From the sequence record OR644643.1: 64,000 nucleotides of DNA, one strand, 5' to 3'. The position numbers and the translations under genes are program-made. Below, one piece after another: positions 15,585 to 25,671 of this stretch; within the stretch, counting starts at the first letter, position 1; the number at the start of each line of letters is the position of its first letter. This stretch comes from Klebsiella phage NU-KP11. The notes under the pieces were generated by a model. The model was given only the letters and a program-made list of their open reading frames with translations. It did no database searches and had not been told where the DNA came from.

Positions 15585-16049
15585 ATGAATAAGTTTTTCT
15601 TTGATATGGATGGTGTATTGTTCGACTGGGAAGGTTCATTTGTGCCAATGTATGGCGAACCCTCGATGATGACAGAAGATGAGTTGAAAAAGTGCAAAGC
15701 AAAAATTGCCAAAACTGATTTCTACGAAAATCTGGAACCAATCAAAGAAGGATTTGAATTATTCCATCATTTAAGAACACTTGGTGATGTAGCAATACTA
15801 ACCAGTGTCGGTAAATTCAATTCTGACGGTGTTGCCGAACAGAAACGTAAAGCATTACAAAAAGTATTGGGTTACGTTCCAGAATTCCACTACGTTAAAA
15901 GTAGCCATGAAAAAGCAGCATTCGCTGGTAAAGGAATCCTGTTTGACGATCGGGCAAAAGCGGTGTTGCCTTTCAGAAAAGCAGGAGGTAAAGCAATCCT
16001 CTTTGTTGGTGATAAGAAAACAGCGCTTGATGAATTAAAAAGATTGTAA
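15585..16049 (+). CDS. HAD-superfamily 5'(3')-deoxyribonucleotidase-like phosphatase (NT5C-like)
   Basis: FFDMDGVLFDW is HAD motif I (DxDG). TDFYENLEPIKEG is conserved with the paralog at 16082-16600. A sigma70-like promoter TTGACA..TATAGT sits at about 15532-15560, and RBS GAGGAA is present. Confidence 0.6.
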   Translation: MNKFFFDMDGVLFDWEGSFVPMYGEPSMMTEDELKKCKAKIAKTDFYENLEPIKEGFELFHHLRTLGDVAILTSVGKFNSDGVAEQKRKALQKVLGYVPEFHYVKSSHEKAAFAGKGILFDDRAKAVLPFRKAGGKAILFVGDKKTALDELKRL

Positions 16050-16055
16050 AAGAAA

Positions 16056-16080
16056 GGGAACCATTGCGGTTCCCTTTTTT
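16056..16080. terminator. Bidirectional rho-independent terminator between the convergent HAD genes
   Basis: The hairpin GGGAACCATTGCGGTTCCC is flanked by an A-run on one side and a T-run on the other. Confidence 0.7.
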
Positions 16081-16081
16081 G

Positions 16082-16600
16082 TTATTGATTAGCCTTTGCA
16101 AGCGCTTCTGTGACTAGCTGAATATTTTCTTCCAGGGTTTCCGCAAGGAAAATACCAGGAACTTTATTAGCTAGATGAGAATTGTTCCAGATTTCAAGAT
16201 GTTTCTGGTTGCGGGAAATCAGAACACCACGATAGGCATGTTCTGCGAACTGTTCCGGATAGTCAATGCGACTAAAATCGAGACGAGAGACCCCCAGTTC
16301 AGCGCAAATCTTATCTGTATAGTTCAGTTTTTCTTTCATAACCCAAAGAGGGCTGACCGCTTCCGCGCGAAGCAGCAAAGTAGCAGGATCACCGATTCGG
16401 CGTTGGAAACTCCATTGAAGGAGGTCAATCCCAGCCTGAATACGGGGAAGGTTTTTATAAAAATCAGTACGCACCAAAGAAGCCGCCATTTCGTCATATC
16501 GTTCTTTTGGCGTTCCTTCCGGACGTACACCGAACTTATCATAAAAAGCCTGAGAAAATTCTGCTAAAGTGTCGTCGAAATCAAAAAGAAGTGTATTCAT
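16082..16600 (-). CDS. HAD-superfamily NT5C-like phosphatase, a convergent paralog of 15585-16049
   Basis: LLFDFDDTLAEF is HAD motif I. TDFYKNLPRIQAGIDLL is shared with the + strand paralog. Confidence 0.6.
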   Translation of the reverse strand: MNTLLFDFDDTLAEFSQAFYDKFGVRPEGTPKERYDEMAASLVRTDFYKNLPRIQAGIDLLQWSFQRRIGDPATLLLRAEAVSPLWVMKEKLNYTDKICAELGVSRLDFSRIDYPEQFAEHAYRGVLISRNQKHLEIWNNSHLANKVPGIFLAETLEENIQLVTEALAKANQ

Positions 16601-16613
16601 TGTTTGCCTTATT

Positions 16614-16889
16614 TTATTGGTCAGGATCTGGTTCAGGAGCAGGAGTCAATGACAACAGACTAACCAGTTTACCATTACGAGATTCGATTACATGAATATC
16701 ACCATAATCTTCAAACGCCTCTTTCAGAGTATCAAACTCTAATTTATATTTTTCTTCCGCATAATCGCGCCAGTCGTCGCCTTTCTCAAAAGCATCAACG
16801 ATAATATCGTATAGCCAGTATGGAAGATATGTAAAACTGGTATTTCTCCACGGAATAGGATGAACCGTAGTCCATTTTTCAGTTGCCAT
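16614..16889 (-). CDS. Free-standing paralog of the Hoc C-terminal (capsid-binding) domain, 91 aa
   Basis: WTTVHPIPWRNTSFTYLPYWLYD...GDDWRDYAEEKYK...LKEAFEDYGD...ESRNGK closely parallels the last roughly 80 aa of the adjacent Hoc (WTVHPIPWRDTSFTPIGYWVLD...GKDWKTDYADYKY...LKAFMENGE...DSRNGY). Confidence 0.6.
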   Translation of the reverse strand: MATEKWTTVHPIPWRNTSFTYLPYWLYDIIVDAFEKGDDWRDYAEEKYKLEFDTLKEAFEDYGDIHVIESRNGKLVSLLSLTPAPEPDPDQ

Positions 16890-16899
16890 TTAAAGCCTC

Positions 16900-17961
16900 T
16901 TAGATTTCACTCATTTTATGAATATAGCCGTTTCGTGAATCCTGGATCTCACATTCACCGTTTTCCATGAACGCTTTCAGGATCGTTTGTACTTCCTCAC
17001 TATACTTATAATCAGCATAATCAGTTTTCCAATCTTTACCCTGTGCTTTCTGATACAGAATTTCATCAAGTACCCAATAACCGATCGGGGTAAAGCTGGT
17101 ATCACGCCACGGAATCGGGTGAACCGTCCATTTGGAAACGAGATCATCAGAATTTTGATTAACAGTTACGACACATACAGTTGATGTGATGGTATCGGAA
17201 TTCGCATCAGTGACTACAACTTTATACGAACCCGCATCATCCAGAGCCGCACTTGCCACTGTAAGAGTATCCGCATCGTCTCCAACCGGAGAATCATCCT
17301 TAGTCCATGCATAAGAATAAGGAGAAGTACCACCCAATACAGTTACACTAAGGATCAATGCAGAATCCTGTGTTACGGAAGCGGTCGGGCTTAGATTTTT
17401 ATCAAACGCAAGAGCAGGCGTAACGCTAACAGCACAAGCACTAGAAGTTTTTCTGTTACCCAGTGAATCCGTCACTTCTACCGTATATGAACCTGCATCA
17501 CCACTTGCAGCCGCGCTAATTGTTAAGGTTGCAGAATCACCACTAACAACAGTAGAACCACGTTTCCATACATAGGTATACGGGGATTTACCGCCAGTTA
17601 CCGCAACAGTCAGGGTAAGTTCTTTACCAGTAACAACAGATTTTGTTGCAGGTAAATCAGTACCAAATGCGATTACCGGATAAGTGATCACGGTGATTGT
17701 ATCAGACGTGGTTTCTGTTGCTGATTCTTCATCAGCACCGTGTTTTAAGATCAGGGTATAATCACCAGCAGTTGTACCGTCAACCGTAGTTGTGTAAGTA
17801 TCGGCGGTTGCGTCTGGAATATCTACACCATCTTTTTGCCAACGATAGGCCAGAAACACATCACCAGGATCTAGTTCAGTAGTTTCAACCTCTAAGGTCA
17901 AAGTTTCGCCAATCAAAAGTTCGTTTTTGTTGGCGCTAATTGTTACAGAAGGAATTGCCAT
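16900..17961 (-). CDS. hoc: Hoc-like outer capsid decoration protein with three Ig-like (BIG2/I-set) domains
   Basis: Three repeats of the pattern ...L.LTVAVTGG.SPY.Y.W.K.....G.....LTI....A.D.GSYTV.VTD, followed by a C-terminal domain. A TATAAATA late promoter on the minus strand sits at about 17987-17994. Confidence 0.75.
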   Translation of the reverse strand: MAIPSVTISANKNELLIGETLTLEVETTELDPGDVFLAYRWQKDGVDIPDATADTYTTTVDGTTAGDYTLILKHGADEESATETTSDTITVITYPVIAFGTDLPATKSVVTGKELTLTVAVTGGKSPYTYVWKRGSTVVSGDSATLTISAAASGDAGSYTVEVTDSLGNRKTSSACAVSVTPALAFDKNLSPTASVTQDSALILSVTVLGGTSPYSYAWTKDDSPVGDDADTLTVASAALDDAGSYKVVVTDANSDTITSTVCVVTVNQNSDDLVSKWTVHPIPWRDTSFTPIGYWVLDEILYQKAQGKDWKTDYADYKYSEEVQTILKAFMENGECEIQDSRNGYIHKMSEI

Positions 17962-17986: not shown

Positions 17987-17994
17987 TATTTATA
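17987..17994 (-). promoter_or_regulatory. T4-type late promoter TATAAATA (hoc)
   Basis: The motif reads TATAAATA on the minus strand, about 26 nt upstream of the hoc ATG. Confidence 0.6.
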
Positions 17995-18559
17995 GCCGGA
18001 GTATTTTACCGTTACACGTTCCGCATTTGTCGTAGTCGTTAACACGTCCATACCCATTACATTCAGGACAAAACGGAGTAGTAACCCCGAAAACGTTACG
18101 GATCGCATAAGTGGATTGTTCTTCGGTCAACCCAACAAACCCATCAGTTTTAATAAAATGTTCTTTTTGTGAAGAAAGCATATCGGTGTCATCATCAAGA
18201 ATGAGATAGTTTTTACATCCGAAAGTATCGATCCATGCCTTGATTTCATCACCACGCATTCCAGTACTATGAGGGAAGTTAGTGCAAGTTTTACCAATGA
18301 TCCGATACAATCCCCACGGATAAAATATTTCACGTAGATTATGGGTACTGTTGCCGATTCTCCACGTAGAGGAAATGACGATATCACAATTAGCGTGATT
18401 CACTATCCGGCGTAAGTGTCGTGCGCATTCGATGTCCATATGTTCACCAAATTTCATGCACCGCATATTATTTAGAACGCCATCGATATCAAGAAAAATA
18501 ACGTTACCAATCTCGTTACCATCGCTCAAATCTTTTAAACATTCGTGATTTAAGTTCAT
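17990..18559 (-). CDS. HAD-like phosphatase with a C-terminal CxxCxGxG zinc ribbon
   Basis: VIFLDIDGVLNN is HAD motif I. The C-terminal CPECNGYG...CGTCNGK is a zinc-ribbon motif. Confidence 0.55.
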   Translation of the reverse strand: MNLNHECLKDLSDGNEIGNVIFLDIDGVLNNMRCMKFGEHMDIECARHLRRIVNHANCDIVISSTWRIGNSTHNLREIFYPWGLYRIIGKTCTNFPHSTGMRGDEIKAWIDTFGCKNYLILDDDTDMLSSQKEHFIKTDGFVGLTEEQSTYAIRNVFGVTTPFCPECNGYGRVNDYDKCGTCNGKILRL

Positions 18560-19002: not shown

Positions 19003-19581
19003 TTATTTTTTGAACGTGTCGAACTGGCTATTTCTGGTTTCGCGTACAGTAACCATCCCATCACGGTGCATGTACCATGCCAGCGACTTGAGGGTTTGAC
19101 GCGCTGAATAATGAGGGCAACCATCAGGATGCTTGTACCAATCCGGATTTTGTTTCATCCAATCATAGATCCAATACGGACACGTATAAAAGCCAGTATT
19201 CGAAACAGAGCGGCCCATCATGATGATAGACGGGGTAAACCCTTCCATCCATGCCAGTTCATCAGAAACCGTCTCAGAATCGCTTACAGGAGCTTGTAGA
19301 GCGTCGGGAACAATTTCAATCTGGTCGGCAATTTCCGGAGCAACATCAGGAACGGATGGTTCACCTTCGTATGTAACAATTTCCGGATCAGGGGAGTCGA
19401 TCAACAGTTCTGGTTTTTCTGCTGGTACGGCAGCTTCCAGATCAGCAAGCATATTTTCGAATGACTTCTGACGGTTCAGTTTGACATCAAACGTTTCTTG
19501 CGCGTAGGTAGCAAGCTGTAATTTGGCTTCTTTTTGTTCTAAGGCTTTGAAACCTTCAACCTTTTCGTAATCAATACTCAT
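19003..19581 (-). CDS. Hypothetical acidic protein (about 192 aa from the MSIDYEK ATG, which has a GGAG RBS)
   Basis: The track ORF extends to 19680. The ATG at 19581 has RBS GGAGAACTACAATG. Confidence 0.5.
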   Translation of the reverse strand: MSIDYEKVEGFKALEQKEAKLQLATYAQETFDVKLNRQKSFENMLADLEAAVPAEKPELLIDSPDPEIVTYEGEPSVPDVAPEIADQIEIVPDALQAPVSDSETVSDELAWMEGFTPSIIMMGRSVSNTGFYTCPYWIYDWMKQNPDWYKHPDGCPHYSARQTLKSLAWYMHRDGMVTVRETRNSQFDTFKK

Positions 19582-19613
19582 TGTAGTTCTCCAATGTTTA
19601 TCATTATTTAGCC

Positions 19614-19621
19614 TATAAATA
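19614..19621 (+). promoter_or_regulatory. T4-type late promoter TATAAATA (uvsW)
   Basis: The motif lies about 30 nt upstream of the uvsW GTG start. Confidence 0.6.
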
Positions 19622-19651
19622 TTCATATAAACCGTATATAGGATACACATA

Positions 19652-21151
19652 GTGGATATCGAAGTCAAATTCCTTAACACTAGTCATGTGCAGATTCAGG
19701 CAGAGGCTAACATAGTCTATGAATTGCGCGACTATTTCAGCTTCCAGCCGCCAGGTTATCAGTACCAGGCAAAATACAAATATGGTGGATGGAACGGCTA
19801 CATATACTTGATGGACTATAACGGGAAACTGCCCTACGGTTTAGCCTATCTTGTAACAAAATTCGCGGAGTCTCGCGGGTATTCTATCTGGATGGATCCT
19901 AAGATCCACGAAACAGAAGAAATTACCCAGCCAGATTTTGACAAGTGGTTAGAAGAACACCCAGTATACGACGGAAACAAGCAGATTGATCCGTATTGGT
20001 ATCAAAAACAATCGGTGTTCCATGCGATTAAAAACCGCCGTGCTGTGCTTAACCTCCCAACGTCAGCGGGTAAATCTCTTATTCAGGGGTTGATATCTCG
20101 TTGGTGTCTGGAAAATTACACAGGCAAAGTACTAATCATTGTCCCAACAACCGCCCTTGTTGATCAGATGATCGGTGATATTGTCAACTATCGCCTTTTA
20201 CCTCGCGAGGCAATGCTTGGAATACGTTCAGGAACTGCTAAAAACAGTAATGCATTGATCTACGTGTCTACGTGGCAATCGGCTGTTAAAATGCCTCCTG
20301 AGTGGTTTCAGCAGTTCATGTGTTTGATGGTGGATGAATGCCACAAATCAACCGGACAAAGCATACAGAAGATCATCAACACAATGGATCAGTGTATTTT
20401 CAAGTTTGGCCTTTCTGGTTCTCTGAAAGAAGGCAAAGCAAACATGATGCAATACATTGGCGCTTTTGGTCAAATCTTCAAGCCAGTTGATACAAATCGG
20501 TTGATGCAGGAAGGTCAAGTTACCAACCTTCGAATTAATACCATCTTCATGAGATATAAAGAGGATGAGATTAAGAAAATGAAGGGGGCAGATTACCAAA
20601 GCGAAATCAAGTATATAACATCGCATACCAGGCGTAACGCATGGATCTGTAAGCTGGCGTTGAAACTGGCAAGGGAAAAAGATGAAAACGTGTTTGTGAT
20701 GTTCAATCAGATCAAACATGGTAAATGGCTGTATGAGCAACTCAAAAAGGTATATGACAACGTTGTATACATTTCTGGGGAAACGGGGATTGATGAGCGA
20801 AACGAAATGAAACGGATCGCAGAATCAACGAAGGGGCTGATCGTAATCGGTTCTATTGGTGTACTGAGTACAGGTATTTCTGTTAAGAACCTGCATCACA
20901 TCATCTTCGGACATCCTTGCAAATCTGCTGTTATAGTCAAACAGTCAATTGGGCGCGTACTGCGTAAACATGATTCTAAATCTCTTGCTACTGTTTGGGA
21001 TTTGGTTGATAACTTAGCAACGCTGGCAAAGTCCAAAAATGCTAAAAATAAATATTCATACAAAAACTATGGTATGAAACACGCAATCGAACGAGTACGC
21101 ATTTACAATGAAGAAAAGTTTGACTACGTGATCAAACAAATCGAAATTTAG
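19652..21151 (+). CDS. uvsW: UvsW DNA/RNA helicase (SF2)
   Basis: MDIEVKF.. aligns with T4 UvsW MDIKVHF... Motifs LNLPTSAGKS (Walker A), MVDECHK (DExH), and SIGRVLRKH are present. The start codon is GTG, with AGGA 9 nt upstream. A + strand late promoter TATAAATA lies at about 19614-19621. Confidence 0.9.
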   Translation: MDIEVKFLNTSHVQIQAEANIVYELRDYFSFQPPGYQYQAKYKYGGWNGYIYLMDYNGKLPYGLAYLVTKFAESRGYSIWMDPKIHETEEITQPDFDKWLEEHPVYDGNKQIDPYWYQKQSVFHAIKNRRAVLNLPTSAGKSLIQGLISRWCLENYTGKVLIIVPTTALVDQMIGDIVNYRLLPREAMLGIRSGTAKNSNALIYVSTWQSAVKMPPEWFQQFMCLMVDECHKSTGQSIQKIINTMDQCIFKFGLSGSLKEGKANMMQYIGAFGQIFKPVDTNRLMQEGQVTNLRINTIFMRYKEDEIKKMKGADYQSEIKYITSHTRRNAWICKLALKLAREKDENVFVMFNQIKHGKWLYEQLKKVYDNVVYISGETGIDERNEMKRIAESTKGLIVIGSIGVLSTGISVKNLHHIIFGHPCKSAVIVKQSIGRVLRKHDSKSLATVWDLVDNLATLAKSKNAKNKYSYKNYGMKHAIERVRIYNEEKFDYVIKQIEI

Positions 21152-24102: not shown

Positions 24103-25671
24103 TTACAGCCCTTTAACGTATACTTTACGGAAGTATGCGTTTTTACCGAACATTTCTTTGGTAATCATACCAGAAGTGATACGGTCGGACGGAGCCTGAG
24201 AGCGAGAGTTCGCAAACGGGTTGATACCTACACCGTAACGAGTTTTGAAGCCCATTACTGGCTGGAAGTTCTTCGGATCAGAACCACGCAGCGGGGTCAG
24301 CGCAACATACGGAGCGTAGTAGATACCAGCATCCATTTCGTTATCGCCTTTGTAACCCACGGTGAAGTAATCACCACGTGCATACTGGTCGATGTATACT
24401 TTATACACGCCACCCAGAACACCAGCGAATACTGCTTTAGTGGTGTCAACGTTCAGAGTCTTCTGGAGACCTTGACCTGCCGGAGTGATACCGCTATCGA
24501 TACGAGCCAGAGCGGAAACCACGTTACGGGAAGCGATGATGAAGTTACCAGCACCACGACCAGTTTGACGTGCGATTTCGTTTGCTTCTTTGTCGATCTG
24601 AATCAGCAGAGCTTTGTAGCTTTCACCAGCCCAACGAGCGCCACGAACATCAATCGGATCCTGGAAGTCAAACGCACCAGCTTTAGAGCCAACGGTCTGA
24701 GTGAAACCAGTTTTACCAACCTGTGCGGTATAGTTGATCATGTCAACGATTTCGCGGTTGATTTCCAGCATGATTTCGGTTGCCAGAATAGCAGACAGTT
24801 CGGCGTCAGCGTCCATACCGTGAACAGCGCGGAGATCCTGAGCCAGTTCTACAGAGTACTGTGCTTTCAGTTGGCGGCTACGTGCTTCGATAACCTGCTT
24901 ATCGATACGGAAGCCCATTTCGTTCCACGGGTTGCCAGTAGAACCGTTGAACTGTTCTTGCAGTTCTGCTACACTGGTAGCCATACCGTAAGAAATTTCA
25001 GCCAGAGTACCTTTTTCCTGTTCGGCGATAACAGCAGCATCCAGAGCATCGTCGGTAGAACCAGTTACAGTAACCGGAGCGCCAGAAACGTTCTGGAGGA
25101 ACACACGACCAGTTTCAACGAAATCGTGGAACACAATAGCGCCGTCAGCAATAGCCTGAGCAGAAGTCAGTTTGGTAAAGCCGTTGCTCGGAGCCGCGCC
25201 CTGACCGGAGTACATGCTATCCGGGGAGAACATCGGATGGAATGCTTCTTTAGCACCGGAAGCCAGCGGATCTTTACCGTACACTGCGCGGAGAGCGAAC
25301 ACCTGACCAGTAGGGCCAGTCATCGGCTGAACACCGCAGATATCGAATGCGATCAGGTTAGGAATCGCACGGCGAACCATACCGATTACAGCAGGGCCGA
25401 TGTTGGTGATAGCACCGCTTGAGTTACCAGAAGCGATTTTGGTTGCGTCGTAACCGTGGTCACCAGCAATTTCAGCTTCCGCCAGGAAACCACCGAAGGA
25501 TTCAACGATTTTCTCGTCGCGGTAAACCGGATCAACTTCTGCGTCTTTTTCCTGTGCTTCCATAATGGCAGCAATCAGTTGTTTTTTGGATTTGGTAGCG
25601 ATATCCGGTAAGCCTTCCTGAGACTCCAGAAGATCGTTCCATTTTTCCATCAATTCGTTTTTCTTAGACAT
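24103..25671 (-). CDS. 23: Major capsid protein gp23
   Basis: The protein is 522 aa with extensive identity to T4 gp23 (GPAVIGMVRRAIPNLIAFDICGVQPM, YYAPYVALTPLRGSDPKNFQPVMGFKTRYG). A terminator hairpin lies downstream at about 24067-24084. Confidence 0.97.
   Translation of the reverse strand: MSKKNELMEKWNDLLESQEGLPDIATKSKKQLIAAIMEAQEKDAEVDPVYRDEKIVESFGGFLAEAEIAGDHGYDATKIASGNSSGAITNIGPAVIGMVRRAIPNLIAFDICGVQPMTGPTGQVFALRAVYGKDPLASGAKEAFHPMFSPDSMYSGQGAAPSNGFTKLTSAQAIADGAIVFHDFVETGRVFLQNVSGAPVTVTGSTDDALDAAVIAEQEKGTLAEISYGMATSVAELQEQFNGSTGNPWNEMGFRIDKQVIEARSRQLKAQYSVELAQDLRAVHGMDADAELSAILATEIMLEINREIVDMINYTAQVGKTGFTQTVGSKAGAFDFQDPIDVRGARWAGESYKALLIQIDKEANEIARQTGRGAGNFIIASRNVVSALARIDSGITPAGQGLQKTLNVDTTKAVFAGVLGGVYKVYIDQYARGDYFTVGYKGDNEMDAGIYYAPYVALTPLRGSDPKNFQPVMGFKTRYGVGINPFANSRSQAPSDRITSGMITKEMFGKNAYFRKVYVKGL

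Follow-up and report, generated by a model that had tools for sequence, protein, structure and literature searches.

T4 phage display and vaccine design make standard use of Hoc as a handle, and the protein is thought to mediate mucus adherence of the phage and to affect virion dispersion. [quoted passage not shown] The pb10 protein is monomeric and is located at the capsid hexamer centres (PMC5292684). In T4, one Hoc chain is bound per hexamer centre, where its anchor touches all six gp23* subunits; the residues His295, Arg300, Trp310, Asp313 and Glu355-Gly359 are conserved and contact the capsid, and the Hoc-contact region of gp23 has been defined (PMC10385173). The same study noted, once and for phage PG7, an N-terminal Hoc-type anchor in a protein of the GDSL type (PMC10385173).

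We report that the window, i.e. the whole stretch of 64,000 nucleotides that was analysed, which comes from a Klebsiella Slopekvirus (KP15 group, Straboviridae), encodes a real and conserved Hoc-type capsid-binding domain that is free-standing. The complete CDS is located on the minus strand at 16614-16889 (based on the ORF listing, BLASTP to Hoc and PHROGs) and runs from an ATG start to a TAA stop; the computed values for the 91-aa product are 10.8 kDa, pI 4.4 and a net charge of about -10. The neighbouring hoc gene (16900-17961, minus strand) encodes a classical Hoc of 353 aa, in which Ig-like domains are followed by a C-terminal anchor, as judged from three Pfam Ig_3 matches, phrog_1149 and the GenBank annotations of near-identical phages. 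The anchor of this Hoc, residues 276-353, is encoded at 16903-17136 (minus strand; BLASTP and alignment). In BLASTP, residues 4-73 of the 91-aa protein align with Hoc residues 276-345 (35/71 identical, 49%; 68% positives; E 2e-20). The PHROGs profiles phrog_14282 (E 2.5e-62), phrog_11091 (E 1.2e-40) and phrog_1149 (E 8.9e-23), all "Hoc-like head decoration", and phrog_9703 ("head decoration", E 6.6e-18) also match, and phmmer aligned residues 8-79 with residues 293-365 of the T4 Hoc chains in the PDB (E 4.9e-10). Taken together these matches place the similarity to Hoc far above chance. The PHROGs profiles are 167, 246 and 502 positions long and the 91-aa protein covers only their first 71-90 positions, which was the first hint that its relatives are longer and have the anchor at the N-terminus.

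An earlier note on this DNA, made from the sequence alone, had described the ORF as a free-standing copy of the C-terminal domain of Hoc next to hoc, lacking Ig domains and ending in a Pro/Asp-rich tail, and this description holds: besides the BLASTP match, the motif string that it quoted is found in the protein, the Pfam search of the protein returned no Ig domain (Hoc by contrast has its three Ig_3 matches), and the C-terminal end is TPAPEPDPDQ. None of the Pfam models searched matches the anchor itself. We assign residues 1-82 to the anchor domain (16644-16889, minus strand; AF2, Foldseek and family-invariant positions) and the remainder, PAPEPDPDQ plus the stop codon, to an acidic Pro-rich tail (16614-16643, minus strand; pLDDT and DNA alignments). 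The anchor starts at residue about 5, with no Ig-like string N-terminal of it, and the stop codon comes nine residues past the anchor, so that there is no C-terminal cargo either.

The AF2 model of the 91-aa protein, computed with a 40-sequence alignment, has a mean pLDDT of 86, with the 10-residue blocks that span residues 11-80 at 90-93, while the last nine residues (pLDDT 45-69) are predicted to be disordered. With strands at 10-12, 17-22, 65-69 and 75-77 and helices at 24-35 and 49-62, the anchor is predicted to be a four-stranded sheet plus helices, equivalent to the C-terminal domain of T4 Hoc. The only significant Foldseek match in the PDB was 8t1x_X (TM 0.68, rmsd 2.2 Å, E 1e-6), the C-domain of T4 Hoc as seen on the gp23* capsomer (PDB 8T1X/5VF3; PMC10385173); the sequence identity to the T4 domain is 36%. 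No pb10 match was obtained in the Foldseek search of the model, and no sequence or fold relationship with pb10 was detected.

The capsid-contacting residues of T4 Hoc are retained. In the alignment, T4 His295, Arg300, Trp310, Asp313 and Glu355-Gly359 correspond to H10, R15, W25, D28 and E69-S70-R71-N72-G73, which are invariant or nearly so in the 40-sequence alignments. The equivalents of T4 Y304, W309 and H299 are F, Y and W, identical to those in the window's Hoc, and in total the two proteins of the window have identical or similar residues at 10 of the 13 interface positions listed for T4 Hoc. The exceptions are the equivalents of W306, Q354 and Y360, which are Y, I and K in the 91-aa protein vs P, Q and Y in the neighbouring Hoc; affinity, and even site preference, could therefore differ from those of Hoc. 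The predicted docking site on the capsid protein is likewise conserved: GSKAGAFDFQDPIDVRGAR (24634-24690, minus strand; phmmer alignment to T4 gp23) in the window's gp23 (CDS 24103-25671) corresponds to T4 gp23 326-344, GSKAGVFDFQDPIDIRGAR, with 17/19 residues identical and with the equivalents of D336, P337 and R344 retained. The 91-aa protein resembles T4 Hoc in fold, contact residues (His, Arg, Trp, Asp and ESRNG), acidity, the gp23 loop and in being encoded in the hoc locus, where it is a putative late gene. It differs from T4 Hoc in having a short acidic Pro-rich stub instead of Ig-like domains, in the three interface positions, and in that the anchor of its lineage is N-terminal whereas that of T4 Hoc is C-terminal.

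To define this lineage an exhaustive HMMER search of 1.84 billion representatives was performed, giving 75 relatives; exhaustive and profile searches were needed, as a word-indexed single-sequence protein search gave just 3 matches. A scan of IMG/VR gave 10 loci and no new alleles. The best six full-length HMMER matches are proteins of 165-246 aa with the matching part at residues 1-89, the seventh (P0010) is a 121-aa protein without cargo, and all later matches are classical Hoc proteins with the matching part at the C-terminus. The cargo of the N-anchor proteins consists of one or two Big_2-like domains, a Hoc-type Ig_3 (P0004) or a GDSL hydrolase, the latter in 510-511-aa proteins of Karamvirus and Kanagawavirus. 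Across genera the N-anchors have 55-88% identity to the 91-aa protein (Metamorpho 62%, P0087 88%), and the PG7-type anchors 52-55%. In comparison, N-terminal anchors and Hoc C-terminal anchors of the same genome are 44-45% identical in alignments (44-49% including BLASTP), and the C-anchors are 80-90% identical to each other across genera.

In a neighbour-joining tree of 45 anchor domains (200 bootstraps) the N-anchor proteins form one clade with 91% bootstrap support, within which the 91-aa protein groups with three cargo-bearing proteins of 164 aa (100%). It carries the N-anchor signature KWTTVHPIPWR ... LP(Y/W)W(I/L)xDII ... (I/M)ES(R/K)NG, and the clade as a whole has a loop after the DW motif that is one residue shorter as well as its own residues at three T4 interface positions. 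The duplication that separated the N- and C-anchor lineages is therefore older than the split between Slopekvirus, Pseudotevenvirus and several genera of the Tevenvirinae. On these sequence comparisons we place the 91-aa protein in an old N-terminal-anchor branch of the Hoc family.

The closest described relatives are the 167-aa "Hoc" of RB43 and other Pseudotevenviruses and the 162-166-aa proteins of Metamorpho, EcS1, JC221 and Lemur_ER36 (phrog_11091/14282). These belong to the same clade, have 62-88% anchor identity, share the TP-rich exit from the domain and are encoded downstream of hoc, or replace it, upstream of the 5'-nucleotidase gene; unlike the 91-aa protein they have, beyond the anchor, an Ig-like domain of the Big_2 type (about 80 aa). 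The 511-aa protein of Enterobacter phage PG7 and its like also have an N-terminal Hoc domain of this clade followed by a Pro-rich linker, but their large C-terminal region contains a GDSL/SGNH hydrolase domain (Pfam E 3.6e-18), and their genes lie elsewhere in the genome, close to those for topoisomerase and dexA. The domain order of the N-anchor lineage is the same as that of pb10, which unlike the 91-aa protein has kept its Ig-like domain.

The gene order around hoc is informative with respect to the origin of the truncated form. The minus strand of the window carries inh, a 103-aa ORF, a gene for a HAD/zinc-ribbon protein, hoc, the 91-aa ORF and a 5'-nucleotidase gene (16082-16600, minus strand, downstream of the 91-aa ORF); inh is listed at 19003-19680 (minus strand), its true start probably being the ATG at 19581, and the divergent gene uvsW lies at 19652. 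Over the 2.6 kb around the 91-aa ORF the window shares 99.5% identity with phage pR7_1, and 111 GenBank phages reach 95% or more. The ORF occupies a hoc-locus position that is syntenic with RB43, vB_EkoM5VN, Lemur_ER36, Metamorpho, EcS1 and the metagenomic contig L031. In RB43-type phages the HAD gene and the nucleotidase gene flank the coding sequence of a 167-aa protein with anchor and Big_2-like domain, which is the only Hoc-family match of the genome. In Metamorpho (Jiaodavirus) and EcS1 (Kagamiyamavirus) an N-anchor gene of 162-165 codons lies directly 3' of hoc, and in the Slopekvirus Lemur_ER36 a 164-aa protein with anchor and Big_2-like domain occupies the very slot of the 91-aa ORF. 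The order in L031 is Inh, a 105-aa ORF, the HAD protein, Hoc, a 164-aa gene and a 166-aa gene, the last where the window has the nucleotidase gene. The model of a 164-aa relative places a beta-sandwich, predicted with confidence, after the anchor; this sandwich matches surface domains of the Big_2 type from phages.

The DNA alignments with Lemur_ER36, L031, RB43 and EcS1 show a gap of about 250 nt in the window: about 36 nt of it fall in the linker and about 210 nt in the cargo. Between the window and Lemur_ER36 the identity is 91.5% and 98.1% in the regions flanking the anchors but only 82% across the two anchors, and the 98% homology block begins at window position 16612, at the stop codon of the 91-aa ORF (16614-16616). 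As read from these alignments the tail is best described as what is left of the linker between the two domains, and GAACCAGATCCTGAC, which has been retained, may be the counterpart of the conserved GDPDL motif at which the lost Big_2-like cargo began. Because the same-slot relatives have Big_2-like cargo that is absent here, the direction of change is cargo loss, and the window allele reads as a cargo-loss derivative, not as a nascent gene. We rejected the possibility that the ORF is part of a frameshifted or split longer gene: the gap to the next ATG is 13 nt, no cargo-like sequence is present in any frame, and the homology to Lemur_ER36 resumes at the stop codon (window 16612). The beta-4 strand KLVSLLSL was also discarded as a sign of frameshifting, the same strand being present in the cargo-bearing sisters.

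Signals for expression were predicted as follows. The hoc stop codon is separated by 10 nt from the start of the 91-aa ORF, and the stop codon of the latter by 13 nt from the ATG of the next gene. A Shine-Dalgarno sequence AAGAGG (16896-16901, minus strand), identified from the sequence 6 nt 5' of the ATG, overlaps the hoc stop codon, and the same AAGAGG core precedes hoc. A pattern search placed the T4-type late-promoter consensus TATAAATA at 17987-17994 (minus strand), some 26 nt 5' of the ATG of hoc. Promoter and Shine-Dalgarno are consensus matches only; TATAAATA occurs 8 times in the window vs 4.2 expected by chance. The terminator scan gave no terminator-like site from this TATAAATA to the 3' end of the 91-aa ORF. 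Downstream of hoc, the first candidate is a GC-rich hairpin with T-runs at 16050-16080, past the nucleotidase gene and between the two convergent 5'-nucleotidase genes; it is annotated as a terminator on both strands in KLB25 and is likely to mark the end of a late transcript begun upstream of hoc. Given a common putative promoter, the same Shine-Dalgarno core and no terminator in between, it is plausible that Hoc and the 91-aa protein are made in similar molar amounts.

Anchors without cargo are also present in other T4-like phages. A 121-aa anchor with a 40-residue acidic PE-rich tail, encoded directly after inh, is 96% identical to a gene of Morganella phage vB_Mm5, in which the 121-aa anchor with its acidic tail is the sole Hoc-family gene. 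P0101 and P0103 are anchors of 121-133 aa followed by PEPEPDPD repeats, contig L026 encodes a 95-aa anchor after inh together with a classical 268-aa Hoc on the other strand, and contig L029 a 106-aa anchor after inh. We note that such blank anchors often end in an acidic Pro-rich stub or in PEPD repeats. The vB_Mm5 protein, P0101/P0103, P0102 and P0099 resemble the 91-aa protein in that the Hoc anchor stands alone, is encoded beside inh or hoc and in several cases has an acidic PE/PD-rich tail, but they belong to other branches of the anchor tree, and a full Hoc, as retained by the window phage, is missing from vB_Mm5, where no further gene of the Hoc family is present. Lying on separate branches, they arose independently, and this recurrence is the main reason for thinking that an anchor alone has selective value. 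Tentatively, cargo-less anchors could be a recurrent and selected "blank" decoration, formed when T4-like phages repeatedly remove the display domain and retain the anchor. It would serve to keep the hexamer centres capped and negative and, in phages that also have a full Hoc, to titrate the density of the adhesive and immunogenic Ig fibres; taken with the Big_2 and GDSL-esterase forms, the N-anchor would be a natural plug-and-play module for C-terminal display. This wider view is possible, but we hold it with considerable doubt.

For the 91-aa protein itself we favour, with moderate confidence, a role as a minimal decoration protein, i.e. a Slopekvirus anchor-first Hoc paralogue without its Big_2-like cargo that acts as a blank cap competing with Hoc. 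The ancestor would have had a hoc2-type layout, with an N-terminal capsid-binding domain, a Pro-rich linker and a C-terminal cargo. As read from the sequence, the gene would be transcribed late together with hoc from TATAAATA and translated from its own AAGAGG Shine-Dalgarno, and the product would adopt the computed Hoc anchor fold. By homology to T4 Hoc, the base of the beta-sheet and the ESRNG loop would dock on the centre of the expanded gp23* hexamer. Near-identical binding surfaces and the same conserved gp23 loop suggest that Hoc and the 91-aa protein are mutually exclusive at each centre, and with one anchor per hexamer each site would take either a Hoc Ig fibre or a blank cap, in a ratio set by abundance and affinity. 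Such a cap would be an acidic domain (net charge about -10) from which an acidic Pro-rich stub of 9-11 residues is exposed, so that the capped centres would be negative and the density of adhesive, immunogenic Ig fibres would be lowered. Ig fibres and blank caps would together form a mosaic on the head (in T4 there are 155 hexamer-centre sites). It has been proposed that the acidity of Hoc keeps virions dispersed (Fokine et al., PMC10385173); a blank cap would keep this dispersing acidity and drop the adhesive and immunogenic domains. T4 does not need Hoc under laboratory conditions, so whatever advantage a blank cap might give is conjectural. Competition with Hoc for capsid sites had been raised in the earlier note, and we find it to be the most plausible consequence, given the matching fold, the kept binding residues, the conserved gp23 loop and the predicted co-expression with hoc. 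A literature search gave no virion proteomics, transcriptomics or capsid cryo-EM structure for any Slopekvirus, and no paper discussing the 91-aa protein. Hoc was detected in a virion mass-spectrometry paper on a Jiaodavirus, and the part of its virion peptide tables that was available contains no N-anchor peptides.

How the truncated allele is maintained bears on the most serious alternative, namely that it is a neutral remnant of a recent accidental cargo deletion, with a useless or barely made product, which has hitch-hiked through Slopekvirus. About 110 phage records, from several continents, encode the intact protein at ≥95% amino-acid identity, and a 321-nt segment across both junctions is found in 110 records at ≥95% nucleotide identity. 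Among the 12 alleles and two metagenomic clusters compared, two amino-acid variants (P23S and D38E) and two synonymous changes were seen in the 82-codon anchor, against three events in the 9-codon tail (a PA insertion, D88E and D88V+P89T); the changes hence concentrate in the tail and not in the anchor (Fisher p 0.006). The dN/dS ratio relative to the Lemur allele is 0.19 with dS 0.82, on a path that includes the time before truncation, and in relative-rate counts the cargo-less branch shows no excess compared to cargo-bearing sisters (1-4 unique changes vs 1-6). The variation data favour constraint on the anchor against a background of low Slopekvirus diversity; the genomes are so similar (flanks 98-99% identical, leaving little time for decay) that the invariance of the 82-codon domain taken alone is weak evidence. 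Neutrality would also fit with the frameshifted 49-aa version (P0009) in one Logan contig, with cargo-bearing alleles up to 88% identical that still circulate, and with T4 Hoc being non-essential in the laboratory (PMC10385173). However, the widely distributed intact ORF, the tail-biased changes, the strong Shine-Dalgarno that has been retained, the lack of rate acceleration and the independent cargo-less anchors elsewhere, once as the only Hoc-family gene, make us consider a neutral remnant rather unlikely.

Alternatively, the 91-aa protein might bind a different capsid site or a subset of sites, e.g. vertex-proximal hexamers, and coexist with Hoc without competition. The lineage-specific residues at three T4 interface positions and the shorter loop after the DW motif would be compatible with this, as would the finding that T4 Hoc differs at vertex-proximal hexamers (PMC10385173). 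Against it, most interface residues and the ESRNG loop are the same as in Hoc, the gp23 loop is conserved, and in Pseudotevenviruses (RB43) the hoc locus holds the N-anchor form and no other is present, which suggests that this form fills the ordinary Hoc site. We therefore regard a separate site as improbable.

Lower still we rank a non-structural role, in which the protein would act inside the cell and would not stay in the virion, for instance by masking hexamer centres transiently or by contacting Inh or Hoc during assembly or as a timing factor; an assembly factor was one of the roles named in the earlier note. The C-terminal domain of Inh, an internal head protein, has the Hoc anchor fold (hhalign 95.6%, E 1.3e-8), showing that the fold is not limited to external decoration, but the closest relatives of the 91-aa protein are two-domain proteins with surface-type Big_2 or esterase cargo, a layout that is sensible only for stable external display.

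That the ORF is a recent tandem duplicate of the hoc 3' end on its way to new display domains, as the earlier note had also suggested, is refuted: it adjoins hoc and has the same orientation, and a direct repeat of 38 nt (16831-16868/17090-17127, 84% identity) is common to the coding segments of the two anchors, but its identity to the neighbouring anchor is only 44-49% with saturated synonymous sites, N-anchor proteins of other genera are 70-88% identical to it, the N-anchor clade has 91% support, the tandem of hoc and an N-anchor gene is common to Jiaodavirus (Metamorpho), Kagamiyamavirus (EcS1) and Slopekvirus relatives, and the relatives carry cargo that has been lost here.

Returning to the blank cap competing with Hoc, this function of the 91-aa protein is plausible on the sequence data. 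What is new is the anchor-only architecture; family, fold and N-terminal arrangement had been recorded before, and the finding is in this respect incremental. It also corrects the annotation. Some GenBank records name the 91-aa protein Hoc-like, and in the phiEap-3 paper orf230 is "Hoc" and orf229 a "whisker protein"; as the 91-aa ORF is FDI05_gp230 and the 353-aa gene FDI05_gp229 in the phiEap-3 RefSeq record, the name Hoc in that paper is most likely attached to the 91-aa protein. The 91-aa protein goes under the name "Hoc" in several genomes and most likely in that one paper, and the real Hoc is listed there as a whisker, tail or VCBS protein. The natural 82-residue anchor would define a minimal capsid-binding unit, with cargo attachable at its C-terminus. 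Finally, our data suggest that therapeutic Klebsiella phages of the KP15 group may have mosaic heads, on which the density of Ig fibres would be set by two co-expressed genes, and this would bear on their immunogenicity and pharmacokinetics.

Profile-profile comparison (hhalign) of 40 Hoc capsid-binding domains (anchors) with eight Inh proteins gave a match over 58 columns with a probability of 95.6% and an E-value of 1.3e-8, and the motifs WW(I/V)xD.I, DW, TL and G.V.V.E(S/T)RN(G/S) are common to the Inh C-terminus and the Hoc anchor. In agreement with this result, P0094, a related protein with an N-terminal anchor, is matched by PF26098 (Phage_Inh_C) in the precomputed Pfam assignments. These comparisons show homology between the C-terminal approximately 65 residues of Inh (19015-19206, minus strand) and the Hoc capsid-binding domain; the window thus contains the anchor fold three times within 3 kb. 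No statement of this relationship was found in the literature searched. Inh itself is a minor head protein annotated as an inhibitor of prohead protease. As listed, its ORF (19003-19680, minus strand) has a GTG start and overlaps uvsW; since all eight aligned homologues begin at the Met that matches residue 34 (ATG at 19581 in the window), the true length of Inh is probably 192 residues. The annotated length of inh in GenBank relatives is 579 or 648 nt.

Between inh and hoc lies a minus-strand gene (17990-18559) for a 189-aa protein with a HAD_SAK_2 domain ("Swiss Army Knife" RNA-repair HAD, E-value 2.7e-29) and a C-terminal DnaJ-type CxxCxGxG zinc ribbon; one pipeline mis-annotated it as "collagen like minor tail". 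Elsewhere in the neighbourhood, a bidirectional hairpin terminator of 31 nt (16050-16080) lies between two convergent 5'(3')-deoxyribonucleotidase-like genes (15585-16049, plus strand, and 16082-16600, minus strand).

The hoc gene (16900-17961, minus strand, in the window; loci L007, L020, L023 and L031) is hypervariable in a Slopekvirus backbone that is otherwise 91-99% identical. Hoc has 353 residues in the window, 177 in KLB10 and Prick1_ER44 and 469 in Lemur_ER36, and no nucleotide similarity was detected between the window and Lemur_ER36 in the Ig-coding part of the gene. The syntenic metagenomic contig L031, which is more divergent (flanks approximately 74-75% identical), encodes a Hoc of 376 residues. 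A 38-nt direct repeat with 84% identity (16831-16868 and 17090-17127, 259 nt apart) codes for TVHPIPWR(N/D)TSFT in both anchor copies, i.e., in hoc and in the downstream ORF for the 91-aa anchor protein, and the equivalent cross-match in other phages is 85-89% identical. Recombination or gene conversion between the two genes could use this repeat as a substrate. Their annotation in the KP15-group GenBank/RefSeq records is inconsistent: the 91-aa protein appears as Hoc, head decoration, tail fibers protein or capsid and scaffold protein, and the true Hoc as whisker protein, tail protein, VCBS precursor or large outer capsid protein.

Three metagenomic proteins, P0101, P0103 and P0010 (the last from loci L027/L028), likewise consist of an anchor only, followed by long acidic Pro-rich tails that are either PEPEPDPDPEPEPDPDPQPEP repeats or a PE/PD-rich stretch of 40 residues. 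The trypanosome procyclin (PARP) repeat model matches the tail of P0101 (E-value 9e-6), and the tails suggest convergence towards an extended polyanionic stub.

Anchors also occur joined to an enzyme domain. Proteins of 509-511 residues from a Karamvirus (L005, 4001-5536) and a Kanagawavirus (L006, 4001-5530) carry a Hoc anchor at the N-terminus and a GDSL/SGNH hydrolase (Pfam Lipase_GDSL_2, E-value 3.6e-18) at the C-terminus, joined by a Pro-rich linker, and their genes are located near the topoisomerase and dexA genes, away from hoc. A protein of this type is mentioned, for phage PG7, in a single sentence in PMC10385173. The 509-511-aa proteins would be capsid-displayed esterases.
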